Shown here: positions 2,118-52,669 of the stretch, piece by piece | How positions within the stretch are numbered: the stretch's first letter is position 1 | How the letters are laid out: each line of letters begins with the position of its first letter | Program-made: the position numbers and the translations under genes | NCBI GenBank assembly: GCA_003135855.1 | Contig: PNBD01000044.1 | Coordinates: 10,905-74,904, forward strand | Reading direction: 5' to 3' | DNA length: 64,000 nt | Source: Deltaproteobacteria bacterium | Lineage (GTDB): Bacteria; Desulfobacterota; Binatia; Binatales; Binataceae | The notes under the pieces: model-generated | Database searches by the model: none | The model's input: the letters and a program-made list of their open reading frames with translations, nothing else | What the model was told of the DNA's origin: nothing

Positions 2118-3220
2118 GACTGTTCCTTGGCGAGCACCGGGGTTCCGTCGGCCAGTCGATCGATGTCGCTGACCGCGACGTGATCGCCCTCCTTCAAGCC
2201 ACCGGTAATTTCGGTCTGGTCGGCAACGACGGCGCCGGTGGTCACTTCGTGCGCACGCACGACGCCGTGATCGACGATGAACACGCGCGCGACGCCCGCA
2301 TACCGCAGCACCGCGCTGGTGGGCACGAACAAGGCGCTATCGCGGCCGAGGTTCATCGTGACGTGGGCGAAGAAACCGGGCTTCAGAACATGCTCGGGAT
2401 TGGCGACTTCGGCTTCGATGAGAAGCGTGCGGCTGCCTTCGTCGAGCGCCGGCGCGATCCTCGTGATCGTGCCGGTATACGTCATGCCGGGTTTCGCGTC
2501 GATCGTGAGATTCACCGTCATGCCGACTTTGGCCATCGGCACGAAGCGCTCGGGCATCGGGCAGCGCAGCTTGATCGGATCGGTGGCGATCAGTTCATAG
2601 AGTTGCTTGCCGGCCACGACGTATTCGCCCAGCGACACCATGCGTTTTTGCACGGAGCCGTTGTAAGGCGCCTTGATTTCCGTGTCGCCGAGTTTCTTGC
2701 GAGCCAGCGAGACTGCTTTCTCCGCGGATTCCACGTCAGCCTGATCGATCCGCAAGGTGGAGGCGACTTGATCGAACTGTTCGTTCGAGATGGTCCCCTC
2801 GGCCTTCAGCCGTTGCGCACGATCGTAGCGTCCCGTCGAGTTGGTGAGCCGCGCTTGCGCTTGGTCGAGCGCAGCCTGCGCCGTTTCGACTTTGAGTTGG
2901 TATTCGCGCGGGTTGATCTTGAGCATCACCTGCCCGGCGTTGACGGTGTCACCGAAATCGGCGGCGACCATCATCACGGGACCTTCGACTTCGGAAGACA
3001 GAACCGCGCGCTCGCGCGGAAAGAGAGCGCCCTGCACTTCGGCGGTGCGATCGAGGTTCTGTTGATGCGCCGCGGCAACCGAAATCGTGATCGCCCGCGG
3101 AGCGAGCTTGTCCTTTTCGACGTCGGCGGCGGCTGGCGAATGACATCCCGCGAGTGAAAGCCCGCCCGAGATCAGCGCGATCAAGGCGACCAGGTGAAGA
3201 TGAGAGCGTTTCAGGCGCAT
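2114..3220 (-). CDS. RND efflux periplasmic adaptor (membrane fusion protein, HlyD/AcrA family), lipoprotein
   Basis: 368 aa with lipobox LISGGLSLAGC, biotin-lipoyl-like and beta-barrel MFP motifs. Directly upstream of the RND permease with a 4-nt overlap, which suggests translational coupling. Confidence 0.85.
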   Translation of the reverse strand: MRLKRSHLHLVALIALISGGLSLAGCHSPAAADVEKDKLAPRAITISVAAAHQQNLDRTAEVQGALFPRERAVLSSEVEGPVMMVAADFGDTVNAGQVMLKINPREYQLKVETAQAALDQAQARLTNSTGRYDRAQRLKAEGTISNEQFDQVASTLRIDQADVESAEKAVSLARKKLGDTEIKAPYNGSVQKRMVSLGEYVVAGKQLYELIATDPIKLRCPMPERFVPMAKVGMTVNLTIDAKPGMTYTGTITRIAPALDEGSRTLLIEAEVANPEHVLKPGFFAHVTMNLGRDSALFVPTSAVLRYAGVARVFIVDHGVVRAHEVTTGAVVADQTEITGGLKEGDHVAVSDIDRLADGTPVLAKEQS

Positions 3221-4565: not shown

Positions 4566-5555
4566 TCAGTTCGACTGACCGGAGTATCCAGGGCGTTCGA
4601 GCTGATCGCCAAGGATTTCGGCTAGGCGCTCGGCCGGAAGGCGTCGTAAATCGGGGATCGCAAAGCCGGACGCGGCGACGTGGCCGCCACCCCCGTACAT
4701 CTGAGCGAGCAGCGACAAATCGACGTCGGAATCGGCACTGCGCCGGAGGCTCACGCCCTGGCTCCGCAGATCGAACAGTGCGACGACCATCTTGTGCTGT
4801 CCCTTGTAAAGCTCCGACGCGACCTCGCTGCTGTAGCCGAAGCAGCAAGCGGTGCGCAGCGTGATGCCGTTGTCGAGCTTGCGATCGACCATCGTCGCGT
4901 GAGCGAGTTCGATACTGCGGCGCAGCCCATCCTGGCCCGACTCGAAGGCGGAGCGGAGCCTGCGGCTCATCCTGGGTTCGCGGAGCTTCAGAATTTCGCG
5001 ATACGAGTTGATGCCGCCGAGCGTCTGCACGGCGAGCGCCCAATCCGACGACTCCGGGATTTGATGGATCCAGCGATCGTGATCGTCAGCGATCAACACG
5101 AATGGTTCGAAGGCCTCGAACGCGGCGCGACGCGCTTCGGGAAGTTCGCTCGCCCGGCTCTTCAGGTAGTTAAAGGTTAGCCGCGCGGCGGAGTACTGTT
5201 CGTCGAGCACGATGCCGGCGAACGGTACCTTGAACTCGGGTGCATCGGCGCGCGAGACTGCGGTGCGATGATGATCGATCCAGAAAACGCGCGCACCCCG
5301 GGCGGAAAGCTCGCCAAGGCGGTCCGCGCTCGCGGTTGAGTTCCAGGACAAGTCGGTGATCCAGATCTCGCCGCCATCGTCGGACTTGATGTTCAGTCCC
5401 TGGATCACGCGGTCGGCGTCGCTGTTTCCGGCGAGCGTAGTGAACACTCTATGGCCGTCGTAAAATCGTGCGACCGCCGCCGCAGCCATCACACCGTCGA
5501 GGCATGATGGGCCGTGGCTGACAACCTGAATCGTCTGAGAATTTTTGCCCAACAT
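4566..5555 (-). CDS. DHH-family phosphoesterase (NrnA-like)
   Basis: Begins MLGKNSQTIQVVSHGPSCLDGVMAAAAV (DHH motif) and has a GGGH motif near the C-terminus (DHHA1). Start chosen at the internal ATG at 5555, not the track's 5708, because the upstream 51 aa are Arg-rich junk. Confidence 0.75.
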   Translation of the reverse strand: MLGKNSQTIQVVSHGPSCLDGVMAAAAVARFYDGHRVFTTLAGNSDADRVIQGLNIKSDDGGEIWITDLSWNSTASADRLGELSARGARVFWIDHHRTAVSRADAPEFKVPFAGIVLDEQYSAARLTFNYLKSRASELPEARRAAFEAFEPFVLIADDHDRWIHQIPESSDWALAVQTLGGINSYREILKLREPRMSRRLRSAFESGQDGLRRSIELAHATMVDRKLDNGITLRTACCFGYSSEVASELYKGQHKMVVALFDLRSQGVSLRRSADSDVDLSLLAQMYGGGGHVAASGFAIPDLRRLPAERLAEILGDQLERPGYSGQSN

Positions 5556-6158: not shown

Positions 6159-7322
6159 TCAGACGACTTTGCGGAAAGCGAGCGCGGGCGGAATGCGCGC
6201 CGCGTTGATCACAGGCACAATCGCGGCCGCGAGGCTGACGATGAAAGCCGCCAGAATCGCTGCGATCGCGGTCTCCGGCCGCACCGTTACGTAACCGAGC
6301 GCGCCGGTCAACGCGCCGAGCGTCATGCCGGTGCCAAAATACCAAAGAGCGAAACTGGCGCCGACGATGGCGCCGGTGACGCCAATCATCGCCGCTTCGC
6401 AGAGCAATAGCGCCGCCGCATGAGCCTGCGTAAATCCCAGCGCGCGCATGACTGCGACCTCGCCGATGCGATCGCGCACCATCATCGCCATCGAGTTGGC
6501 CGCGATTAGCAACATCGTCAGTAACACCACTACACAGAGGCCATAGATGATCGTCCGCACGTCGCCGATTGCGGAAACATAGTTCGCGAGCGTATCCGAT
6601 TCGGTGACCGACTGAGTCTCGGCTTCCGAGTTGTGAAAATTTTCGTCAATCTGGTTCGCCACCAAACCCATGTTCTCCGCCCGATCGACCCGCACCGAGA
6701 TGTATCCGGCAACGTTCTGGATATTCTCGCCGAAAGTGTTTTTCACCGCGTCGTCAAGCAATTGCCGATTGAAGAAAAATATCCGCGACAGATAAATCGT
6801 CGGAAGTTCAGCCACCGGAATAAATGTAAGCGTGAATTTGCCAGAAAGATTGCGCAGCGTAATTGGCTCGCCGATTTTCCAGTGGTGCTCATGCATCAGG
6901 ACGCTGCCGATCAGAGCGCCCCGTCGATCGTTGAAGACCTGTTTCGCCACGTCTGGCGGCGCCACGTAGTCGCTGCTCGCGGTAACCGTGTTGATATCGG
7001 TCGTAATTCCAGTCGTGACGATCGGATCGCGCAGGTCGCGATAGATACCGGTCCACTGAATTTGCGGTGAGCAGCCGAGCACGTGCGGTATCTTCATGAT
7101 CGCATTGCAATATTTGACTGGCAGCGTGTTGTTATTGCGCTCGGTTACGACCAGCCGTATCCCTCGAGACGCATCTTCCGCGATCATATCCATTGAGGCG
7201 GGGACGGCGATCAGCACCGTGAAGATGAAGACCGCGACCGCAAATGTGAGGCCGGTCAGAATCGTGCGGCGCGGCTGTCGCCGCAGATTTCGCAGGGCCA
7301 CGATGAACAGTTTCAGAATCAT
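6159..7322 (-). CDS. ABC transporter permease, FtsX/MacB/LolC-like (type A paralog)
   Basis: Starts MILKLFIVALRNLRRQPRRTILTGLTF... One N-terminal TM, a ~220-aa periplasmic domain, then three C-terminal TMs. Its ATG overlaps the stop of the upstream permease (ATGA). Confidence 0.8.
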   Translation of the reverse strand: MILKLFIVALRNLRRQPRRTILTGLTFAVAVFIFTVLIAVPASMDMIAEDASRGIRLVVTERNNNTLPVKYCNAIMKIPHVLGCSPQIQWTGIYRDLRDPIVTTGITTDINTVTASSDYVAPPDVAKQVFNDRRGALIGSVLMHEHHWKIGEPITLRNLSGKFTLTFIPVAELPTIYLSRIFFFNRQLLDDAVKNTFGENIQNVAGYISVRVDRAENMGLVANQIDENFHNSEAETQSVTESDTLANYVSAIGDVRTIIYGLCVVVLLTMLLIAANSMAMMVRDRIGEVAVMRALGFTQAHAAALLLCEAAMIGVTGAIVGASFALWYFGTGMTLGALTGALGYVTVRPETAIAAILAAFIVSLAAAIVPVINAARIPPALAFRKVV

Positions 7323-43975: not shown

Positions 43976-44063
43976 CGCGATTCGCGCTTGCTATCGACGG
44001 TGAGACGGGCCTAGGGTTTTTGAGTGACGCCGCAGATCGGCGAATGCCGCGAAGGAGACCCGC

Positions 44064-45008
44064 ATGGCCACTGCCCTCGACCCTCAGACGAAACAATTCC
44101 TCGAGCTCGCCAACGCGGCCGGTCCGATGTTTCTGCGCGCCGAAACTCCCGAGCAGGCGCGCGCGAAGATGCAAGCGCTGCTCGCGGCCAGTCCACTTCC
44201 ACCGGCGACGATCTATCGCGTCGAGGATCGGCACATACCGGGACCAGCGGGGCAGCTACCCGTGCGCGTCTACACTCCCGAGGCGCAGCCGCCGATGGGC
44301 GTGTTGGTGTACTACCACGGCGGCGGCTGGGTGCTAGGCGATCTCGAGAGTCATGACAACGTTTGTCGGGCGCTCGCGAACGGAGCGGGATGCGTGGTCG
44401 TGTCGGTCGATTACCGGCTTGCCCCGGAGCATAAATTTCCGGCCGCGCCGGAGGATTGCTACGCGGCGACCAAGTGGGTTGCCGAAAATGCGCAATCGCT
44501 CGGCGGCGATCCGTCACGCATCGCAGTCGGCGGCGACAGTGCGGGCGGAAACCTCGCCGCGGCGGTAGCGATGATGGCGCGCGATCGCTCCGGCCCGGCG
44601 ATTCGATTCCAGTTACTGTTCTATCCGGTCACCGATTGCGCGCTGGATACGCCCTCGCAGAAGGAGTTCGCGGCGGACGGGTACGTGCTCTCGCGCGGCG
44701 ACATGGAATGGTTCTGGAATCACTATCTGGAAGCGGGCGCCGATCGACAAAATCCTTACGCGTGTCCGCTGCGCGGGAAAAATCTTGCGAACCTGCCGCC
44801 GGCGTTGATTCTGACCGCAAGCCACGACCCGCTGCGCGACGAAGGCGAGCGATTTGCCGAACGCCTGATGACGAGCGGAACCAAGGTGAGCTGCACGCGC
44901 TACGACGGCGTGGTGCACGGATTTATCAGTTTCGCGGATGCGCTCGACCAGGGAAAAAAGGGCCTCGAGCAGGCGGCGGAGGCATTGCGGAAAGCGTTCG
45001 CGGGCTAA
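44064..45008 (+). CDS. Alpha/beta hydrolase, HSL-family esterase/lipase
   Basis: HGGGW oxyanion motif and GDSAGG nucleophile elbow. Confidence 0.85.
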   Translation: MATALDPQTKQFLELANAAGPMFLRAETPEQARAKMQALLAASPLPPATIYRVEDRHIPGPAGQLPVRVYTPEAQPPMGVLVYYHGGGWVLGDLESHDNVCRALANGAGCVVVSVDYRLAPEHKFPAAPEDCYAATKWVAENAQSLGGDPSRIAVGGDSAGGNLAAAVAMMARDRSGPAIRFQLLFYPVTDCALDTPSQKEFAADGYVLSRGDMEWFWNHYLEAGADRQNPYACPLRGKNLANLPPALILTASHDPLRDEGERFAERLMTSGTKVSCTRYDGVVHGFISFADALDQGKKGLEQAAEALRKAFAG

Positions 45009-45066
45009 TCGCGGCACTGTCGCGACGACTTATGCGACCGGTCAGCGTGCAGTATATTCTGCCGCT

Positions 45067-45936
45067 ATGGCGAACCCCGTTCCGCGCCACGAGAATGACG
45101 ACGGCCCGTTCATCCGGCCTCGTCCCGGTCCGCTCGACGACCTCTATCATCATCTGCTGACGGCCTCGTGGCCGGCACTGATCGCAATCATCGCGGGAGC
45201 TTTCGTTGTCGCGAATCTCTTGTTCGCGACGGGCTACTACCTTGACGGCGGGATCGAGAACGCTCGATCCGGTTCGTTCCTCGACATGTTTTTTTTCAGT
45301 GTGCAGACGATGGCGACGATCGGCTACGGCAAAATGGAGCCGGCCTCGCTGATCAGCAACGTCCTGGTTTCGATCGAGGCGCTTTGCGGGCTGCTGGGGC
45401 TGGCGGTGGTTACCGGACTGGTCTTCTCGAAATTTTCCCGACCGACAGCGCGCGTCAGATTCAGCCGCTACGCGATTGTGGCGCCGCGTGACGGCGTGCC
45501 GAGCCTGATGTTCCGGATGGCCAACTTGCGCGCCAACCGGATCGTCGAGGGCGAAATCCACGTGGTGCTCGCGCGCCAGGAAGAGACCCTCGAGGGCGAC
45601 TCGGTGCGGCGCTTTTACGACCTGACCATGTCGCGTTCGCGAAGCTCGCTGTTCATGTTGACCTGGACCGCGATTCATCCGCTCGTCGAGAACAGTCCGC
45701 TGCACGGACAGACTCGCGAATCGCTGGCGCGCTGCGATGGCGAGATAATCGTCTCATTGACCGGCCTCGACGAGACCTTCTCGCAAACCGTCCATGCGCG
45801 GCATACGTATGGCTTCTACGATATCCAATGGGGTGTGAGATTTGTCGATGTCATGAAGAGGCAGCCCGACGGCCAAATTGTGATCGATTACACCCACTTC
45901 GACGACATCGAACCGCTGCTGCCGGCGAAACAGTAA
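45067..45936 (+). CDS. Inward-rectifier-type potassium channel (KirBac-like)
   Basis: ATG 45067. Two TMs flanking a pore helix with the TIGYG selectivity filter, and a C-terminal Kir cytoplasmic beta-domain. Confidence 0.8.
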   Translation: MANPVPRHENDDGPFIRPRPGPLDDLYHHLLTASWPALIAIIAGAFVVANLLFATGYYLDGGIENARSGSFLDMFFFSVQTMATIGYGKMEPASLISNVLVSIEALCGLLGLAVVTGLVFSKFSRPTARVRFSRYAIVAPRDGVPSLMFRMANLRANRIVEGEIHVVLARQEETLEGDSVRRFYDLTMSRSRSSLFMLTWTAIHPLVENSPLHGQTRESLARCDGEIIVSLTGLDETFSQTVHARHTYGFYDIQWGVRFVDVMKRQPDGQIVIDYTHFDDIEPLLPAKQ

Positions 45937-45956
45937 ATTCATCGCAAATCGCGCCT

Positions 45957-46002
45957 TAGCCCTCCTTAGCTATTCAGACAGCCCTTGAAATCTGGGCATC
46001 AC
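45957..46002. repeat. Left copy of a ~46-bp direct repeat flanking the Fic cassette
   Basis: TAGCCCTCCTTAGCTATTCAGACAGCCCTTGAAATCTGGGCAT. It matches 47487-47531 with 3 mismatches. Confidence 0.6.
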
Positions 46003-46069
46003 GATTGGCTACGCGACCGCGAAGTTCGTTCCATGGGAAAACCTGTATATTTCCAATTAAAATATTTGC

Positions 46070-47263
46070 TTGAAAACTTTAATCAAAGTAAGTACATTAA
46101 AATCTATGGACGCACGGGAATTCACGAAAGAAATGACAGGACAATTGGTGCGGATTCCAAACGGGCCACCCGATATTCAAATTGGCTTTGTTCCTAATCC
46201 GTTGCCTCCGAAATGGAGCTGGCCCGAACGATTGTGGTCTTCGCTGGTCGCGGCGCGATCTGCTCTCGCCAGTCTTGATGGCGTCGGGAAGCACCTCCCG
46301 AATCCAGAAATTCTTATTTGGCCGCTTCAGCGCAGAGAAGCGCAGCTTTCATCGCAACTTGAAGGAACGATTACGAATCCGCAGCAGCAGGTGCTGTTCG
46401 AGGCTGATCCGAAATACCCAATATCGCCATCCGATCCAGCCAACGCCTATCGAGAGGTTTTCAATTACAGAGAGGCATTGCGGCTGAGACTCGATGGCAG
46501 AAATCAGTTGCCGTTATCTCTCCGATTGATGCGCGATCTACATACGGTGCTGATGGACGGCGTTAGAGGCTCGAATCAGCAACCTGGCCAATTCAGAACC
46601 ATACAGAATCAAATCGGCAGACCGGCGCGATTCGTGCCTCCTCCGCCCTCACACTTACCCGAAGCTCTCGATGAACTGGAGAAATATCTTCATGTCAAAG
46701 ATTCTCCTTTTGATCCATTGGTCAGGGCTTTTCTCGTTCATTACCAGTTCGAGACCATTCATCCTTTCTGCGATGGCAATGGACGAGTTGGCAGACTTCT
46801 TCTGTCGGTTATGATCGCGGAGTGGTGCGGTCTTTCGAGTCAGTGGCTATACATGAGTCCGTTTTTCGAGAAAAACAGAAACAATTATATGGATTTGCTT
46901 AAGGGCGTCAGCACGCATGGAGCCTGGGACCTGTGGATCGAGTTCTGTTTAGATGGCGTAATTTCCCAAGCCAAAGACACGGAAAAGCGTTGCGATAGAT
47001 TGCTGCAACTACATCGGGATTTTCACAGTCGCCTAAAGGGAGGGAGCGTTCGATTGTCGCAGCTAGTTGATAACTTGTTTCAGAACCCGGTAATCACCGT
47101 ATCGAGGTATTCCAAACAATTCGTAGTTTCATATCCGACTGCGCGATCCGACCTCAAAAAACTTCACCAGTTGGGAATCGTGCAACCGCTGGATAGCGTT
47201 GATGTTATTACCTACTACTGTCCTAGCATTTATATGGTTACTTACGAGGACGTATCTGAGTAG
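46070..47263 (+). CDS. Fic-family protein (AMPylation/Fido domain)
   Basis: HPFCDGNGRVGRLL is the Fic motif HxFx(D/E)GNGRxxR. AT-rich promoter region. Noticeably lower GC than the surroundings. Confidence 0.85.
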   Translation: MKTLIKVSTLKSMDAREFTKEMTGQLVRIPNGPPDIQIGFVPNPLPPKWSWPERLWSSLVAARSALASLDGVGKHLPNPEILIWPLQRREAQLSSQLEGTITNPQQQVLFEADPKYPISPSDPANAYREVFNYREALRLRLDGRNQLPLSLRLMRDLHTVLMDGVRGSNQQPGQFRTIQNQIGRPARFVPPPPSHLPEALDELEKYLHVKDSPFDPLVRAFLVHYQFETIHPFCDGNGRVGRLLLSVMIAEWCGLSSQWLYMSPFFEKNRNNYMDLLKGVSTHGAWDLWIEFCLDGVISQAKDTEKRCDRLLQLHRDFHSRLKGGSVRLSQLVDNLFQNPVITVSRYSKQFVVSYPTARSDLKKLHQLGIVQPLDSVDVITYYCPSIYMVTYEDVSE

Positions 47264-47283
47264 CGAGAACGGACGCGCGTCTA

Positions 47284-47472
47284 TCACCGATTCCAGCGCG
47301 CTTCTGCAGCTTTCTTCGCAATTGCCTTGCGTTTGCGCGGACTCAACTTTGCGACGCGCGCCTTCCCGCCCTTTGACGCTCCGAGCGCGGAAAGCGCCTG
47401 CGCATGGGGGTTCTTGCCCTCTGCGGGCTTTAGGACTTCGCCGATTGCCGTTTCGCTATCTCGTAGTTTCAA
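47284..47472 (-). CDS. Small basic hypothetical protein (62 aa) convergent with fic, inside the repeat-bounded cassette
   Basis: Lys/Ala/Arg-rich C-terminal half (GASKGGKARVAKLSPRKRKAIAKKAAEARW). No family assigned from sequence alone. Confidence 0.35.
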   Translation of the reverse strand: MKLRDSETAIGEVLKPAEGKNPHAQALSALGASKGGKARVAKLSPRKRKAIAKKAAEARWNR

Positions 47473-47486
47473 AACCGCTCACTACC

Positions 47487-47531
47487 TAGCCCTCCTTAGC
47501 TATTCACACGGTCCTTGAAATCTGGGCATGA
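47487..47531. repeat. Right copy of the ~46-bp direct repeat
   Basis: TAGCCCTCCTTAGCTATTCACACGGTCCTTGAAATCTGGGCAT. Confidence 0.6.
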
Positions 47532-47579
47532 TCATGGACTGCTCGTGGGTCGTCGCGGCCCTTTAGATCGGGGAGACAA

Positions 47580-48701
47580 ATGAGCTCAAGCAAGTTGCGC
47601 AGATTCTTGATCGCGTTCGCGCGATGGTTCGATACTTCGGCCGGCGGCACACCGGAGTCCGACGGTCTACAGAAAACAGATTGGCTGCGATGCATCCCGT
47701 TCGCGCTCGTGCACCTGATGTGCCTCGGCGTGATTTGGGTCGGATGGAGTCCGATTGCGGTTGCGGTCGCAGTCGCGCTGTATTTCGTGCGGATGTTCGC
47801 GATCACCGGATTCTATCACCGCTATTTTTCGCATCGGACGTTCAAGACTTCGCGCTTCGCACAATTTCTGTTCGCCGTGATGGGCGCGACCTCGGCGCAA
47901 CGCGGCGCGCTCTGGTGGGCGTCGCATCATCGGTTGCACCATCAACGATCCGATGAGGAATCCGACGTTCATTCGCCGCGCCAGCACGGCTTCATCTGGA
48001 GTCACATTGGATGGATCACGTCGGAGTCGAACTTCCGCTCCGAGCTGCAGGTGGTGCGCGATCTCGCGAAATATCCGGAGCTGATGTTCCTCGATCGCTT
48101 CGACATCCTGGTGCCGACGGTGCTCGGGTTCTCGCTCTTCGGGTTGGGTGCGATGCTCGAGCGGTATGCGCCTGGTCTCCATACCAGCGGCGCGCAGATG
48201 CTGATCTGGGGCTTCTTCATTTCAACCGTCGTGCTGGCACACGGCACCTTCACGATCAATTCGCTTGCGCACGTGATTGGCCGCCGGCGCTTCGAGACCG
48301 GCGACGACAGCCGCAACAGTTTCGCGCTCGCGATGGTGACGCTCGGCGAAGGCTGGCACAACAATCACCATCATTTTCCCGCGGCGGCGCGCAACGGATT
48401 TTTTTGGTGGGAGATCGACATCACTTATTACGTTTTGAAGATGCTGGCCGCGTTGGGAATCATCTGGGAGCTCAGGCCGGTGCCCGAGCAACTGCTATAT
48501 GAAGATCGCGTAGTGCCTGTGCCGCGGAAGATTCCGATTGGCCGTACAGCCGCTGCGGGCCATGCGGTCGCACCGGCGAATCGCGAGCCGAACGCCGAAT
48601 GGCGAAGCGCTGCGGCCTCGACGCTGCAAGACGCGGCGGCGAAAGTAGCGCCGCTCGCGCGACTCGGCAGCGCGGCGACGGAGCCAGAAGCGGCCGGCTG
48701 A
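47580..48701 (+). CDS. Acyl-CoA (delta-9-type) fatty-acid desaturase
   Basis: Three His boxes: HRYFSHR, HHRLHH, HNNHHHFP. Four TMs. Confidence 0.85.
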   Translation: MSSSKLRRFLIAFARWFDTSAGGTPESDGLQKTDWLRCIPFALVHLMCLGVIWVGWSPIAVAVAVALYFVRMFAITGFYHRYFSHRTFKTSRFAQFLFAVMGATSAQRGALWWASHHRLHHQRSDEESDVHSPRQHGFIWSHIGWITSESNFRSELQVVRDLAKYPELMFLDRFDILVPTVLGFSLFGLGAMLERYAPGLHTSGAQMLIWGFFISTVVLAHGTFTINSLAHVIGRRRFETGDDSRNSFALAMVTLGEGWHNNHHHFPAAARNGFFWWEIDITYYVLKMLAALGIIWELRPVPEQLLYEDRVVPVPRKIPIGRTAAAGHAVAPANREPNAEWRSAAASTLQDAAAKVAPLARLGSAATEPEAAG

Positions 48702-48702
48702 G

Positions 48703-49992
48703 ATGGCGAAGTCCGGTTCAATCGTCGCGTCGGGCGTCGACGCGGCGCGCACTCGACGTCCCGCAGTAATCGACCGTTTCGCGCGCGGCGCAGTGCTCGC
48801 GCGCCTGCAAGGCCTCAAGCGCGACCGACTCGTAGTCGAAGATCGCGAACTCCCTGAAACGCGCGTCTTCGGCCAGGATTCATCCTCGGCCGAACTGCGC
48901 GCGACGATCCGCGTTCACGACCGCCGCTTCTACTCCGACCTCGCGCTCGGCGGGAGCATCGGCGCCGGCGAAGCGTACATGGCGGGCTCGTGGACCACTG
49001 ACGATCTCACGTCGCTAGTGCAGATCATGATTCGCAATCGCGAGGTGATGGAGGCGATGGACTCCGGGCTTGCGCGCCTGGCGAATCCGGTGCGGAAACT
49101 GCTGCACTACCTGAATCGCAACACCAAAGACGGCAGCGCGCGCAACATCGCCGCGCATTACGATCTCGGCAACGATTTCTTCGAGCTGATCCTGGATCGC
49201 ACGCTGATGTACTCGTGCGCGATTTTCGAACGCCCCGATGCGACCCTGGAAGAAGCCGCGCTCGCCAAGGTGGAACGAATTTGTCGCAAGCTCGAATTGC
49301 GGCCGAGCGATCACCTGGTTGAGATCGGCACCGGCTGGGGCGGGTTCGCGATCCATGCGGCGAAGAACTACGGATGCCGCGTCACGACCGCGACGATCTC
49401 GCGCGCGCAGCATGATTACGCCATCAAGCGCATCGCGGCGGAGGGCCTGCAGGATCGCATCACGGTGCTGCTCAAGGACTATCGCGATCTGGAGGGACAG
49501 TTCGACAAGGCGGTGTCGATCGAGATGATCGAAGCAGTCGGACATCATTTCGTCGATTCGTATTTCCGCAAATGCGGCGAGCTGTTGAAGCCGGATGGGG
49601 TGATGCTGCTGCAAGCGATCACGATCGCGGACCAGTACTACGAGAACGCGCTGCGCACCGTCGATTTCATCAAGAAGTACATCTTCCCGGGCAGTTTTAT
49701 CCCGTCGGTGACGGCGATTTGCGATTCAATCACGCGCGCGAGCGATCTGCGGCTGTTCCATCTTGAGGATCTGACGCCGAACTACGCGGAGACGCTCAAG
49801 CACTGGCGGCTCAGGCTATTCCAGCATCTCGATCGCGTGCGCGCGCTCGGCTATCCGGAGGAATTCATCCGGATGTGGGAATTTTACCTTTGCTACTGCG
49901 AGGGCGGCTTCCGCGAGCGTTATATCGGCGACGTGCAGATGATACTGACCAAGCCCGCCTCGCGCCGCGCCCCGCTCCTGCCCAGCTTGTAG
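48703..49992 (+). CDS. cfa: Cyclopropane-fatty-acyl-phospholipid synthase
   Basis: SAM-methyltransferase motif VEIGTGWGGFA and Cfa C-terminal conservation. Confidence 0.9.
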   Translation: MAKSGSIVASGVDAARTRRPAVIDRFARGAVLARLQGLKRDRLVVEDRELPETRVFGQDSSSAELRATIRVHDRRFYSDLALGGSIGAGEAYMAGSWTTDDLTSLVQIMIRNREVMEAMDSGLARLANPVRKLLHYLNRNTKDGSARNIAAHYDLGNDFFELILDRTLMYSCAIFERPDATLEEAALAKVERICRKLELRPSDHLVEIGTGWGGFAIHAAKNYGCRVTTATISRAQHDYAIKRIAAEGLQDRITVLLKDYRDLEGQFDKAVSIEMIEAVGHHFVDSYFRKCGELLKPDGVMLLQAITIADQYYENALRTVDFIKKYIFPGSFIPSVTAICDSITRASDLRLFHLEDLTPNYAETLKHWRLRLFQHLDRVRALGYPEEFIRMWEFYLCYCEGGFRERYIGDVQMILTKPASRRAPLLPSL

Positions 49993-50132
49993 TTGCCGGC
50001 CTTCTCTTCTGTCCGTCGGTTTTTCGGAGACGACTCTTCTAAATCAAGCGTGCCCGATGGCGAGCTTTCGCGAGCCGCGAGCGCAGCGAGCCCCGAGCCG
50101 CAACGGAGTGGAGGCAAGGGAATCAAGATGAG

Positions 50133-50169
50133 TTGACAACAGCGATAACCAGATGATAATTATTACCAT
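50133..50169 (+). promoter_or_regulatory. Sigma70-like promoter (TTGACA-17-ATAATT) with an overlapping Fur/PerR-type box ATGATAAT-T-ATTACCAT
   Basis: TTGACA at 50133-50138. An 8-1-8 inverted repeat at 50153-50169 with one mismatch, resembling 7-1-7 Fur-family operators. It overlaps the -10 and is immediately upstream of the regulator gene. Confidence 0.45.
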
Positions 50170-50175
50170 CTAGGA

Positions 50176-50703
50176 ATGGAACTACAGCTGGTAAATGAGC
50201 GACGACGCCCGGCCTACGCCGCGCAGCGCCTGGCCGAATTCGCCGAGCGCTGCCGCGCGGGCGGCCTGGCCGTGACGCCGCAGCGCATAGCGATTATCAA
50301 GGTGCTGCTTGATTCGGCGGAGCATCCGCGCGCCGACGCGATTTGCGCCGCGGTGCGCAAGCAGCATCCCCATGTCTCGCTCGCCACCGTTCATCGCACG
50401 CTCGAGACGCTGTGCGAGATCGGCGAGGCGCGCAAGGTCACGATGCTGCATGACAGCGCGCGCTACGACGGCAATCTTACGCCGCATCATCACGTGGTGT
50501 GCATCAAGTGCCGCTGCATCAGGGACATCGAAATTCCCCAGCTCGATCGGATCCTTGCGGGCCGCTCGGAACTGGGCGAATTCACGGTGCTCGGATCGTC
50601 GCTGGAGATTCACGCGCTGTGCGAACGATGCGGGGCGAAAGCCGCGAAGCGCGCAACCGGCGGAGTCGGTCGCAGCCAGCGCAAGCAAAAATCATCGAAG
50701 TAA
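50176..50703 (+). CDS. Fur-family transcriptional regulator (PerR-like by context)
   Basis: GLAVTPQRIAIIKVLL...HVSLATVHRTLETL DNA-binding helix. C-terminal CxxC...CxxC zinc site. Confidence 0.8.
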   Translation: MELQLVNERRRPAYAAQRLAEFAERCRAGGLAVTPQRIAIIKVLLDSAEHPRADAICAAVRKQHPHVSLATVHRTLETLCEIGEARKVTMLHDSARYDGNLTPHHHVVCIKCRCIRDIEIPQLDRILAGRSELGEFTVLGSSLEIHALCERCGAKAAKRATGGVGRSQRKQKSSK

Positions 50704-50725
50704 TTCAGCCAACAGGGAGAAGAAC

Positions 50726-51142
50726 ATGCCAAGTCTGAAAGGAACCAAGACCCATACAAATCTCAAAAACGCTTTTGCCGGCGAGAGCCAGGCCAACCGC
50801 CGCTATCTCTATTTCGCGAAAATCGCGGACATCGAGGGCCAGCCGGAAATCGCCGGACTGTTCCGCGACACCGCCGAAGGGGAGACCGGTCACGCGCACG
50901 GCCATCTCGATTATCTGAAACAGGTCGGCGACCCGGCGACCGATTTGCCGATGGGCGATTCGGCGCTGAATCTCAAGTCGGCGGTGCACGGCGAGACCCA
51001 CGAATACACCGACATGTATCCCGGCATGGCGCGCACCGCGCGCGAGGAAGGCTTCGACGAGATCGCCGACTGGTTCGAGACGCTCGCCAAGGCCGAAAAG
51101 TCCCACGCTGGACGTTTCGCCAAGGCGGCCACAACGCTCTAG
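50726..51142 (+). CDS. rbr: Rubrerythrin-family diiron protein (no rubredoxin domain)
   Basis: ATG 50726 with an AGGGAGA RBS. Ferritin-like E-x-x-H pairs ([17 protein letters not shown]). The track ORF 50309-51142 is an out-of-context extension through perR. Confidence 0.75.
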
Positions 51143-51316
51143 TTTTCCGCGGACAATCGAGTCCGTCCCGGGCATCGCAGGGTGACCCGGGACGGTGTCT
51201 CATCAAAAGGTCATCGATTTTCTCGTCGGGTTGTCGTGTTCAAGTTTCTTCAACGACTTATCCGAATCGGTGCCCGAGAATCCGTATCGTCGCGAAACTC
51301 CTGACCAGGTTGACTA

Positions 51317-52669
51317 ATGAGTGACCGCATCGAAGCCAAGCCCAGCGACGGGCTTTCCTACAACATGACCGAGCCCAAATATTGGGACCGCGCCGGGCTC
51401 AATAGAGAAATCGAGCGCGTTTTCGACATCTGTCACGGATGCCGGCTGTGCTTCAATTTGTGTCCGTCGTTCCCGGCGTTGTTCGAGGCGGCCGATCGCA
51501 ACGACGGCGATGTCCGCAAGCTGACCGCGGACGAGACCCATCGCGTAATCGAGCTTTGTTACGGATGTAAGCTGTGCGAGATCAAATGTCCCTACACGCC
51601 GCGTGACGGCCACGAGTTCCAGCTTGATTTTCCGCGCTTGATGATTCGCGCCAAGTCGGTCGGCGCCAAGGAAAACGGGATCGGGCTGCGCGAAAAAATC
51701 CTCGGCAATCCCGACTTACTCGGCAAGCTCGGCAACCTGACTCCGCGCCTCGCCAATTGGGGATGCCATCGGAAGTTTCAGCGCGTGATGATGGAAAAGG
51801 TGCTCGGGATTCATCGCGACAAGAAGCTGCCCGATTTCGCCGGAGAGACTTTCGACAAGTGGATAGCGCGAACGGGTCTGCCGCCTGAACCCGCCGAGCC
51901 GGCCGCCAAAGTTGCGCTTTTTCCGACCTGCTTCGTGAACTACTACAATCCCGGACCGGGCAAGGCGGCGGTCGAAATCTTCGCGAAAAACGGATGCGCG
52001 ATCAAATACCCGAAGCAGAACTGTTGCGGGATGCCGGCGCTCGACGGCGGCGATGCCGACTTCGCGCGGAAGGAAGCGCGCGCCAATGTCGACGCGATGC
52101 TGCCGCTGGTGCGCGATGGCTACAAAATCGCGGCGATCAACCCGACCTGCTCGCTCACGATGCGCAAAGAGTATCTGAATTTGCTGCCCGGCGATGAGGT
52201 GAAGGAGTTCGCCGCGGCCGTGGTCGATCCAAGCGAGCTGCTTTACCGGCTCCGGCGCGAGGGCAAGTTCAACAGCGATTTTCGATCGACCCCGGTGAGC
52301 GTTGCCTACCACGTTCCATGTCACTTGAAGGCGCAAGGAATTGGCTTTCGCTCGCGCGATCTGATGCGTCAGATTCCGGGCGTGCAGATCGCGACTGTCG
52401 AGGCATGTACGGCGCATGACGGTTCATGGGCGATGAAAAAAGAATTCTTCGAGCTATCGATGAAATGGGGCGAGAAGGCATTTTCGGCGATGCGCGACGC
52501 CGACGCGCGCGTGATGGCGAGCGATTGCCCACTGGCGGCGGTGCAAATCGAGCAGGCCACTGGTGTCCGGCCGATGAATCCGCTCGAGGTGCTGGCTCGC
52601 GCGTATGAAATAGATGGTTTCGCTGACGCCGTGTCGCCACCGGAGCCGAACAAGGACGATGAGGCATGA
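51317..52669 (+). CDS. (Fe-S)-binding protein, GlpC/HdrD-like with two 4Fe-4S ferredoxin motifs and two CCG domains
   Basis: CHGCRLCFNLCP and CYGCKLCEIKCP, then Cys-rich CCG-type repeats (CFVNYY.., CCGMP.., CHLK..). Confidence 0.75.
   Translation: MSDRIEAKPSDGLSYNMTEPKYWDRAGLNREIERVFDICHGCRLCFNLCPSFPALFEAADRNDGDVRKLTADETHRVIELCYGCKLCEIKCPYTPRDGHEFQLDFPRLMIRAKSVGAKENGIGLREKILGNPDLLGKLGNLTPRLANWGCHRKFQRVMMEKVLGIHRDKKLPDFAGETFDKWIARTGLPPEPAEPAAKVALFPTCFVNYYNPGPGKAAVEIFAKNGCAIKYPKQNCCGMPALDGGDADFARKEARANVDAMLPLVRDGYKIAAINPTCSLTMRKEYLNLLPGDEVKEFAAAVVDPSELLYRLRREGKFNSDFRSTPVSVAYHVPCHLKAQGIGFRSRDLMRQIPGVQIATVEACTAHDGSWAMKKEFFELSMKWGEKAFSAMRDADARVMASDCPLAAVQIEQATGVRPMNPLEVLARAYEIDGFADAVSPPEPNKDDEA

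Follow-up and report, generated by a model that had tools for sequence, protein, structure and literature searches.

The segment at 46000-47486 of the window (the whole stretch of DNA analysed here, 64 kb in length) is probably an immobilised remnant of a passenger-carrying transposon of the IS1 family, which would have been inserted together with a fic gene and from which the transposase end would since have been lost. The two direct repeats that bracket this island are identified as copies of a host sequence, the putative promoter region of the adjacent desaturase gene. Given IS1-type carriage of fic and repeats that represent two copies of a host promoter, the island would be unexceptional as mobile DNA, apart from one oddity.

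The bracketed segment measures 1.49 kb and has a GC content of 50% in a genome of 60% GC. The GC profile runs at 45-55% inside the island and at 60-65% in the flanks (means of 0.50 for the island, 0.496 for fic and 0.61 for the flanks), in agreement with a preliminary description of this DNA, made from the sequence alone, which had noted that the bracketed DNA is AT-richer than the genome. The GC content of fic is 48-52% in every host, for host genomes of 54-62% GC. As that description had also reported, the repeats enclose two genes only, one for a Fic protein with an intact HPFCDGNGRVGR motif and the other a small convergent basic ORF of 62 aa (Table 1); the island holds no integrase or recombinase, and no tRNA or tmRNA was detected in the 64-kb window. 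The island is flanked by the gene of a KirBac-type channel (IRK_C, Ion_trans_2) on one side, and by a fatty-acid desaturase gene followed by a CMAS/cfa gene on the other side. The identical structure was recovered in six further fetched contigs, which come from at least five different samples and show 99.7-100% identity, so that the island is not an assembly artefact. It is invariant among these six other contigs of the locus and the flanks carry SNPs; in L194, 7 SNPs fall within some 1.5 kb of flank, the interval 45880-48065 being free of them.

Table 1. Coordinates of the features of the island (positions in the window) and of the inverted repeat pairs of related elements (positions in the locus named)
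Feature	Position	Strand	Description
Left repeat	45957..45999	+	Duplicate of the native sequence upstream of the desaturase, now in front of fic
Junction filler	46000..46055	.	56 nt that separate the left repeat from the conserved promoter of fic; no TIR
fic promoter/operator (predicted)	46056..46105	+	AT-rich, ATTAAAATATTTGCTTGAAAAC...TTTAATC...CATTAAAATCT
Fic protein	46106..47263	+	385 aa; domains Fic_N and Fic, with a winged-HTH-like domain at the C-terminus
62-aa ORF	47284..47472	-	Codons 19-80 of a conserved basic transposon gene of 80 aa, the 5' end being missing
Terminal inverted repeat (TIR), IS1-family type	47467..47486	-	20 nt, GGTAGTGAGCGGTTTTGAAA on the minus strand; outer end abuts the right repeat
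Right repeat	47487..47529	+	Promoter region of the desaturase at its native place; agrees with the consensus of relatives
L005 TIR pair	5433/7333		TSD CCTCTCTG, 8 bp
L101 TIR pair	160/3096		TSD GGCAGAAG, 8 bp, found three times
L191 TIR pair	3028/6228		TSD CACCGGTA, 8 bp
L095 TIR pair	4048/7338		No TSD

The repeats had been described as direct repeats of about 46 bp with three mismatches. The pair and its mismatches (positions 21, 24 and 26 of the repeat) are real, but the unit is shorter. The repeat search stretched the pair to 59 nt at 83%; gapped global alignment of the flanks downstream of the 43-nt core scored no better than shuffled sequence, and local alignment past 43 bp gave weak and gappy extensions only, so that the real repeat unit is about 43 bp and not 46. 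Within the 64-kb window two copies were found when up to 3 mismatches were allowed, against none in 100 shuffles, and an exact match to the 43-mer was sought in 185,579 species-representative genomes and not found. On these counts a dispersed REP-like repeat, which had been considered at the outset, was ruled out. An integron attC site was ruled out as well, the 43-mer having neither GTT nor the R''/L''...L'/R' boxes (RYYYAAC...GTTRRRY), and the only dyad read from its sequence is a terminal one of 4 bp. A search for a structured RNA or riboswitch near the repeats (Rfam scan of 45500-48000) returned a single chance snoRNA hit of 16 bits, and this candidate was rejected. For a duplication longer than 43 bp, an ungapped match of 9/16 after GGGCAT is suggestive only.

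Empty sites were found in nine related Binatia MAG loci (L013-L020 and L027), in which the order esterase-KirBac-desaturase-cfa is kept and the KirBac-desaturase spacer of about 110 nt holds neither fic nor the small gene. Each of the nine spacers carries a single homologue of the repeat, of the form TTCAC-N13-AAATCTGGGCAT(T/G)ATC. The search for a KirBac-desaturase junction with one repeat copy, proposed together with the first description, was thus successful in nine relatives, and bears out the view that the unit is a foreign insertion between the KirBac gene and the desaturase/cfa pair. Because each empty-site spacer has one homologous copy, the repeat is, as judged by this comparison, duplicated native target DNA, i.e. 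the desaturase promoter region. The repeat sequence was absent from every other fetched fic or small-gene locus.

The placing of the right repeat in the desaturase promoter was likewise upheld, since it lies in the conserved promoter-like upstream region; a promoter scan detected a promoter-like TTCACA-18-CATGAT at 47503-47532, inside this repeat. The scan flagged the right copy and not the left copy, in which the -35 element reads TTCAGA instead of TTCACA and the -10 element CATCAC instead of CATGAT. At repeat position 24 it is the left copy that has the state commoner in relatives, and the three inter-copy mismatches cannot be polarised from the sequences compared.

The preliminary description had interpreted the repeats as attL/attR products of a site-specific insertion, or as a hotspot that captures cassettes. 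This is not supported, in view of the right edge of the island, which is a TIR of the IS1 family, and of its intact relatives, which are IS1-family transposons with 8-bp target duplications (TSDs). The window TIR, the only copy in the window, matches the consensus GGTAGTGGGCGGTTTTGAAA at 19/20, and its start, 5'-GGTAGTG, is presumably close to the ends of IS1. Elements in L005, L095, L101 and L191 are each bounded by two inverted copies of the consensus 20-mer (Table 1). One of these, L095, has both TIRs and no TSD, hence rearranged copies exist among these elements.

The layout of the intact relatives is, in order, a TIR, one or more variable passenger genes, a gene of 80 aa, a convergent cargo gene (Fic or P63C), an IS1 transposase gene and the second TIR; in L095 and L101 it is fic that adjoins the transposase within the TIRs. 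The L095 transposase was recognised by Pfam DDE_Tnp_IS1 (31.7 bits for a cutoff of 24.1) and by NF033558 (6e-13), and has homologues by tblastn in L101 (58% identity) and L004 (76%); the gene at the same position in L191 and L192 has a faint precomputed match to DDE_Tnp_IS1. These elements resemble the IS1-family «transporter IS» and the derivatives of these that have no transposase (mobile insertion cassettes or IS remnants), with which the relatives share the DDE_Tnp_IS1 transposase, the 8-bp TSDs and the passenger genes. Unlike an intact IS1-family element, for which a TSD of 8-9 bp is expected, the window copy has one TIR, no transposase, and a duplication of 43 bp, against 8 bp in the relatives.

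The L095 IS1-family transposase used as a tblastn query gave no match anywhere in the 64-kb window. The second TIR is absent, and a degenerate TIR at the left junction was rejected, the best candidate in 45900-46200 matching at 10/20. DNA homology to the fic loci in four unrelated contexts (L093, L095, L097, L100) begins at 46056-46058, and the 56 nt of the junction filler showed no homology to the L095, L101, L005 and L004 elements or to any fetched locus.

The small ORF carries a trace of the same element. Its TTG-AAA start comes from the TIR, which runs in frame into the 80-aa gene at codon 19, and on account of this fusion the «62-aa basic protein» is, from its alignment, a truncated transposon gene. 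The 80-aa family counts 853 hits, which are typically 78-83 aa long, and has a nearly invariant N-terminus of 18 residues (MPxRASRGGKRADxxQxA) that the window ORF has not kept; tblastn homology of the 80-aa gene in the window starts at 47466-47478. The TTG has no good ribosome-binding site, and no gene caller predicted the 62-aa ORF in any contig of this locus. As a start of the small gene, the in-frame ATG at 47529 was discarded, three stop codons lying between and the ATGCCC at this position being native promoter sequence found in the empty sites. No Pfam, NCBIfam or PADLOC family was found for the small protein and a profile search of the PDB had no match with E under 0.5, its AlphaFold model (pLDDT 60.5) being too poor for a fold search.

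In the favoured scenario, a fic-carrying IS1-family element would have inserted in the KirBac-desaturase spacer, just at the left-hand end of the conserved promoter region of the desaturase, and the intact ancestor would have produced an 8-bp target duplication. The transposase and its TIR would then have been lost from the window copy, and the passenger region deleted from the other TIR up to codon 19 of the 80-aa gene, leaving an intact fic, preceded by a promoter of its own, and a single TIR. The right repeat would be the working desaturase promoter, and the left repeat an altered duplicate. A point against this remnant model is the duplication of 43 bp, which differs from the canonical 8-bp TSD of the relatives; we know of no IS1-family element that makes long target duplications. 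The left junction holds no trace of a second TIR or of transposase coding sequence, so that the canonical first insertion is one that we infer and do not see, and no intermediate allele was found among the fetched loci.

The extra length (43 versus 8 bp) most likely arose by a non-canonical step. In the model that we prefer, the canonical 8-bp duplication TAGCCCTC would have been extended when a double-strand break occurred at the loss of the transposase end, about 35 nt of the right flank being copied as template and the ends rejoined; this templated repair is ranked above an aberrant, widely staggered cut of the target.

The whole structure might also have formed by a one-step aberrant or one-ended transposition, with strand transfers about 43 bp apart and a gap repair that duplicates these 43 bp, the transposase end having never been present or having been lost later. 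The right repeat begins directly at the outer end of the TIR, as expected of a target duplication, and duplications of 8-514 bp are on record for IS1634 and IS1549 (PMC2266710), from which it follows that the earlier statement that repeats of this length are not transposase duplications does not hold universally. These two elements of the IS1634 family are a precedent for transposable elements between direct target repeats that are tens or even hundreds of bp long; they differ in belonging to another transposase family, with large IS4-related transposases, whereas the relatives of the present element make 8 bp. This course of events is nevertheless unlikely, as the three independent intact relatives all have exactly 8 bp, the left junction is without a TIR, and a fresh duplication should be identical, whereas the copies differ at 3/43 positions in an island that is monomorphic among strains.

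The cargo gene is preceded by an AT-rich promoter, in accordance with the preliminary description, a promoter-like TTGAAA-17-TACATT being present at 46070-46098 and ending 7 nt before the fic ATG. The protein was matched by the Pfam families Fic (1.7e-21), Fic_N (9.4e-21) and HTH_DeoR (7e-4). Its catalytic motif aligns with HPFIDGNGRTGR of SoFic and contains the core HxFx(D/E)GNGRxxR. N-terminal to this core, in the Fic_N domain, a candidate inhibitory motif of the (S/T)xxxE(G/N) type, SSQLEG, aligns to SSEIEN of SoFic; it had been correctly stated that the small protein is without such a motif (by inspection, the 62-aa ORF and the 80-aa consensus both are), but the one in Fic itself had been overlooked.

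The SoFic of Shewanella oneidensis, a class II AMPylase and single-gene anti-phage system, has the same domain order and the catalytic motif HPFxDGNGRxGR, its class 2 assignment and its defence role being taken from the literature (PMC12249575). Alignment to the PDB SoFic extends over residues 45-370 (phmmer E about 1e-34), and the PADLOC SoFic model PDLC03963 was matched with E = 2.8e-101 and 337 bits at positions 9-343 of 361; for the NCBIfam equivalog NF046030 the score was 155 bits versus a cutoff of 550 bits. The window Fic is thus a significant match to the S. oneidensis protein that is clearly diverged from it, and differs further in riding on an IS1-type transposon. By these alignments it is a SoFic-type, class II protein with its own predicted intramolecular inhibitory motif, i.e. 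a predicted single-gene AMPylase that would be autoinhibited via its N-terminal helix, and plausibly an abortive-infection defence gene. When the Fic protein was used as query in a metagenome scan, mostly distant homologues were returned, with only L100 and L101 above 60% identity; all ten places listed for P0167 are the same locus and therefore bring no evidence on mobility.

The Fic gene and the small ORF are not a classical two-gene Fic toxin-antitoxin pair. Class I modules (VbhT/VbhA, FicT/FicA) and the SoFic-AS1 pair likewise place a small ORF next to a Fic gene; the (S/T)xxxE(G/N) inhibitory helix of class I modules is provided by the small protein, whereas here the motif lies in Fic and is absent from the small ORF, which is moreover convergent, truncated and common to non-Fic cargo. 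That the small basic protein could neutralise Fic in the manner of AS1, the two forming a toxin-antitoxin or defence pair, was suggested by the 47-aa AS1 encoded downstream of the E. coli SoFic, which suppresses SoFic toxicity (PMC12249575). In the window, as in L095/L096 and L093/L094, Fic is indeed followed by a convergent small gene, and L101 has at this place a different ORF of 70 aa that shares the motif QNALRVV.EAT. The 80-aa gene is, on the other hand, found equally beside P63C genes without Fic (convergent to Fic in L095 and L093, and to P63C in L005, L004 and L191), and close Fic homologues (L097, L100, L180-L189) have no small gene. With a window copy lacking the 18 N-terminal residues and a good ribosome-binding site at its TTG, and a Fic protein having an inhibitory motif of its own, the partnership entertained in the preliminary description appears quite improbable.

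The related elements add to known transporter IS a backbone gene of 80 aa that is conserved and a convergent cargo that can be exchanged (Fic or P63C); for neither was a description found in the literature searched. They may be seen, rather speculatively, as a lineage of IS1-family «transporter» transposons, so far undescribed, that occurs in Binatia and in further soil bacteria, and in which the 80-aa backbone protein would be a regulator of transposition or cargo, or an antidote for toxic cargo, the Fic/P63C slot would be exchangeable, and the 43-bp repeats and a 19-nt repeat of L095 would be footprints of module swapping or re-targeting and not accidents of decay; we regard this extended proposal as improbable.

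Integration of the Campbell type, in which a circle carrying fic and a diverged copy of the desaturase promoter, perhaps excised from this locus in a related strain, would have entered by a single crossover duplicating 43 bp, would explain the 3 differences between the copies of an island otherwise monomorphic, and the presence in the left copy, at one site, of the state common in relatives. It requires a donor circle in which the TIR end is joined precisely to promoter sequence, a configuration seen in no fetched locus, and 43 bp is near the minimum length for RecA-dependent recombination, all of which makes this route very unlikely. Site-specific recombination, with attL/attR repeats produced by a trans-acting integrase on a circular fic cassette or at a cassette-capturing hotspot, is extremely improbable: the repeat is single-copy in the empty sites, as attB would be, and in L095 a direct repeat of 19 nt also brackets the module of fic and small gene, but the repeat is the conserved promoter region of the host and does not occur at other fic/small-gene loci, the island edge is a transposon TIR, neither an integrase in the island, nor a tRNA in the window, nor attC-like R/L boxes in the repeat were found, and the insert carries a truncated gene, which is unexpected for a dedicated cassette.

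For genome scans, the remnant origin favoured here would mean that long flanking direct repeats alone do not indicate site-specific recombination, and that the comparison of empty sites combined with a search for TIRs can settle the origin of such repeats. The locus would also be a case of a transposon-derived insertion that duplicated a host promoter, the desaturase/cfa operon having kept its promoter and an altered second copy having been placed before the imported fic. Carriage as a passenger of an IS1-type transposon would offer a concrete route by which a single-gene defence or toxin gene, such as a SoFic-type Fic, may spread among high-GC soil bacteria, the passenger fic becoming fixed once the transposition machinery has decayed.

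A single outstanding direct repeat was detected by repeat search in 44000-50000, and its core brackets the fic gene and the small convergent ORF, as the preliminary description had held. With up to 3 mismatches allowed, the 64-kb window holds exactly two occurrences of the 43-mer, and likewise of each perfectly shared half, whereas shuffled sequence holds none. The bracketed DNA is indeed AT-richer, with a GC content of 45-55% between the copies versus 60-65% outside (island 0.50, fic 0.496, flanks 0.61). Since the identical arrangement recurs at 99.7-100% identity in six other fetched contigs, which represent five or more samples, an assembly artefact is excluded.

Features of the window island and of related transposons in other contigs (TIR, terminal inverted repeat; TSD, target-site duplication)
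Locus	Feature	Coordinates (strand)	Length	TSD	Content or context
Window	Direct repeat, full extent	45957-46015 / 47487-47545	59 nt		83% identity
Window	Repeat core, left / right copy	45957-45999 / 47487-47529	43 nt		3 mismatches
Window	Island	46000-47486			KirBac-type channel gene on one side; fatty-acid desaturase then CMAS/cfa gene on the other
Window	Fic gene	46106-47263 (+)			bracketed by repeats
Window	62-aa ORF	47284-47472 (-)			convergent with fic, bracketed by repeats
Window	TIR	47467-47486 (-)	20 nt		GGTAGTGAGCGGTTTTGAAA, adjoining right repeat on the island side
L005	TIRs	5433(+)/7333(-)	1.9 kb	8 bp, CCTCTCTG	134-aa gene, 80-aa gene, P63C gene
L191/L192	TIRs	3028(+)/6228(-)	3.2 kb	8 bp, CACCGGTA	286-aa gene, 80-aa gene, P63C gene, IS1-like transposase
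L101	TIRs, more diverged	160(+)/3096(-)	2.9 kb	8 bp, GGCAGAAG	IS1-family transposase, Fic (66% identical), convergent 70-aa ORF
L095/L096	TIRs	4048(+)/7338(-)	3.3 kb	none	IS1-family transposase, Fic (85% identical), 80-aa gene, two small ORFs
L004	One TIR				truncated transposase, P63C fragment, 80-aa gene

Using the desaturase as query against 185,579 species-representative genomes, nine related Binatia MAG loci were retrieved (desaturase identity 67-83%). All nine keep the gene order (esterase)-KirBac-desaturase-cfa, with a KirBac-desaturase spacer of about 110 nt lacking both fic and the small gene; they are empty sites, of the single-repeat kind that the preliminary description had proposed to look for. 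A conserved motif with homology to the window repeat is present once per spacer (GTGCTTGTTCACTTAACCGCGCAAATCTGGGCATGATCAGC in L027, for example); its (near-)invariant columns lie within TTC.C and AAATCTG.GCA..AT. In the window, the consensus-like right copy (TTCACA, GGGCATGATCA) is the site of the sole sigma-70-like match found by promoter scan upstream of the desaturase (TTCACA-18-CATGAT), in agreement with its earlier placement in the putative desaturase promoter. Because of this promoter-like match and the single homologous copy in each empty site, the repeat is identified as the host's own desaturase-upstream regulatory region, doubled by the insertion. The left copy, now upstream of fic, is probably a weakened duplicate, because both of its promoter hexamers are altered (TTCAGA, GGGCATCACGA) and it gives no promoter-scan match. 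A dispersed REP-like element, envisaged earlier as the alternative, was rejected: the window has only two copies, and a pattern of 30 specified bases taken from the repeat gave no exact match in the genome collection. The repeat was found in no other fic or small-gene locus fetched, and its arrival as DNA carried in by the island was likewise rejected.

The desaturase leader of four relatives (L014, L016, L017, L027; e.g. L016:5945-5975) carries a GC-rich inverted repeat (CCGTGCGG...CCGCGCACGG) located 3' of the conserved promoter motif and directly before the GGGGAGA ribosome-binding site; the window leader has no obvious equivalent. A Fur-family regulator and a rubrerythrin gene follow the desaturase-cfa pair (window 50000-51400, seen via L001:5863-6829, a strain variant of the locus), which hints that the operon with the duplicated promoter is tied to oxidative or iron stress.

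The 20-mer that adjoins the right repeat on the island side recurs in other contigs, differing at no more than 3 positions in L005 and L095; there it forms inverted pairs bounding discrete lower-GC elements. It is a TIR whose start, GGTAGTG, resembles IS1 ends. The L095 transposase matches Pfam DDE_Tnp_IS1 (31.7 bits, threshold 24.1) and the NCBIfam IS1 model (6e-13). The family layout is TIR, variable passenger(s), 80-aa gene, convergent cargo (Fic or P63C), transposase and TIR, with a canonical target duplication of 8 bp. The window TIR is the end nearest the 80-aa gene, its outer end flush with the right repeat; the window has no second TIR (best match 10/20), and no transposase homologue is present anywhere in the 64 kb. 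These elements share an IS1-type backbone of TIRs, 80-aa gene and transposase, in which the same convergent slot is taken either by a P63C-domain gene (L005, L191/L192) or by a SoFic-type Fic gene (L095/L096, L101), implying that a single transposon lineage has exchanged its cargo.

Directly beside the L101 transposon, a 28-bp back-to-back TIR palindrome GGTAGTGGGTCAGCACTGACCCACTACC was observed (L101:124-179 and 3077-3104), and the 8-bp target is present three times (before the palindrome, between palindrome and transposon, and after the transposon), suggesting either that this 8-mer was hit by insertion more than once or that an element collapsed there and left its footprint. Inside the L095 transposon, a 19-nt direct repeat TGCTTGCTCGGGA[TA][AG]GCAT (4907-4925 and 6394-6412; chance expectation for the region roughly 0.04) surrounds the fic and small-gene module with a spacing of 1487 nt, versus 1530 nt for the window repeat. 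One copy makes up nucleotides 1-19 of the 80-aa gene; the second falls within the transposase-promoter spacer and precedes the fic promoter block by 25 nt.

The 62-aa ORF belongs to a large, strongly conserved family (853 matches, 75-92% identity, typically 78-83 aa; consensus MPxRASRGGKRADFxQNALRVVEEATGDVLKPAEGKNPHAQALSALGASKGGKARAAKLSxxKRKAIAKKAAxARW). It is alignable only from family residue 19 onward, the nearly invariant N-terminal 18 residues being replaced by the TIR, whose last six bases TTGAAA give an in-frame Met-Lys. Its sole Shine-Dalgarno-like sequence lies 18 nt upstream, within the host repeat, and no gene caller predicts it in any contig of the window locus; the best reading is a remnant left by truncation. 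Pfam, NCBIfam and PADLOC gave no match for the family, and the HHpred-type check proposed earlier, run as a PDB profile search, returned no relative; AlphaFold yielded a four-helix model of low confidence (pLDDT 60.5). The C-terminal motif GGKARA..LS...R..IA.KAA..RW is the one that opens P63C proteins (phrog_2384 positions 7-38). Since the 80-aa gene accompanies P63C (L004, L005, L191) as well as Fic (window, L095/L096 and, in diverged form, L093/L094), and is absent beside close Fic homologues in L097, L100 and L180-L189, it looks more like transposon backbone or a companion gene than a partner dedicated to Fic. The toxin-antitoxin pairing suggested earlier is not supported. The full-length protein might still act as a Fic partner, given that the 47-aa AS1 downstream of E. 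coli SoFic is an antitoxin (PMC12249575); this analysis lends no support to such a role for the truncated copy. The L101 70-aa ORF (2818-3030, minus strand) overlaps the Fic stop by 4 nt; it is rich in Cys in the N-terminal half (CSKCG...HEC) and ends in SQNALRVVREATEDS, the motif of 80-aa family residues 15-28 (QNALRVVEEATGD), which may represent a shared functional module next to Fic.

The Fic protein comprises Fic_N, Fic and a weak C-terminal DeoR-type HTH, and its residues 45-370 align with SoFic structures 3EQX, 3ZCN and 9TC4 (E ~1e-34), catalytic HPFCDGNGRVGR corresponding to SoFic HPFIDGNGRTGR. Because N-terminal SSQLEG aligns with the inhibitory SSEIEN of SoFic, the protein is a class II Fic with an intramolecular inhibitory helix (classes as summarised in PMC12249575). 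The PADLOC SoFic defence model matches at E = 2.8e-101; against the NCBIfam equivalog model for S. oneidensis SoFic, the protein falls below the cutoff. The abundance of the family (7895 matches at E <= 1e-20, many of them 70-85% identical, from taxa including Binatus and Korobacteraceae), a fic GC content of 48-52% in every host examined (hosts 54-62%) and a conserved AT-rich promoter block, starting at window 46056-46058, in four unrelated contexts fit a frequently transferred, self-contained gene. This block (window 46056-46105; L095:4950-5000; L093:4952-5000; L097:1627-1677) contains inverted TTTAATC...GATTAAA half-sites, forming a perfect dyad in L095, and a mere 7 nt or so separate the -10 element from the ATG; the dyad may be an operator for Fic's own HTH and the mRNA near-leaderless.

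The segment is foreign, has an IS1-family TIR at one end and occupies a site empty in relatives. The host DNA directly outside the TIR is duplicated on the far side of the segment, the transposase end is absent, and a deletion has removed the stretch from the surviving TIR up to codon 19 of the 80-aa gene. An intact Fic-carrying element would have entered at TAGCCCTC, and subsequent decay would have left a remnant with fic alone. For the 43-bp length, a secondary event is favoured: the transposase end would have been lost at a double-strand break, and in its repair the ends would have annealed at the 8-bp duplication and about 35 nt of right flank would have been copied prior to rejoining. Such a repair would account for the missing TIR, the repeat register, the non-homologous 56-nt filler, and the 3 differences between copies despite an island monomorphic among strains (strain variant L194 versus the window: 0 SNPs in 45880-48065, 7 in about 1.5 kb of flank). 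Alternatively, an aberrantly long target duplication could have arisen in one step, as precedented by the 8-514 bp duplications of IS1634 and IS1549 (PMC2266710), or a Campbell-type single crossover could have involved a diverged promoter copy. True site-specific recombination is the least supported: of the att-site insertion or cassette capture proposed earlier, the nine empty sites uphold the insertion, but the repeat is host DNA, the island bears a truncated gene and a transposon end, the island lacks a recombinase, and the 64-kb window lacks a tRNA.

Because strain variants L001, L194 and L195 show SNPs in KirBac (45688, 45874-45879) and desaturase (48066, 48208, 48230) and none across island and repeats (45880-48065), the island region seems to have swept or spread through the population recently.

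The island derives from and works like a passenger-carrying IS ('transporter IS'). An intact IS1-family element has a transposase, two TIRs and a short TSD; as transposase, second TIR and short TSD are all lacking in the window, the island is a remnant, not a member, of that family. Integron cassette, REP element and tRNA-linked island were each rejected as its identity. The cargo matches SoFic-type class II Fic at sequence level, its activity and role in phage defence being predictions; a class I Fic toxin-antitoxin pair was rejected, the inhibitory motif lying within Fic itself. The event is of a known kind, of which the locus adds a new example, and it leads to an apparently undescribed lineage of IS1-type transposons that combine a conserved 80-aa gene with exchangeable Fic/P63C cargo, beside which the atypically long duplication of a host promoter is a second by-product of modest interest.
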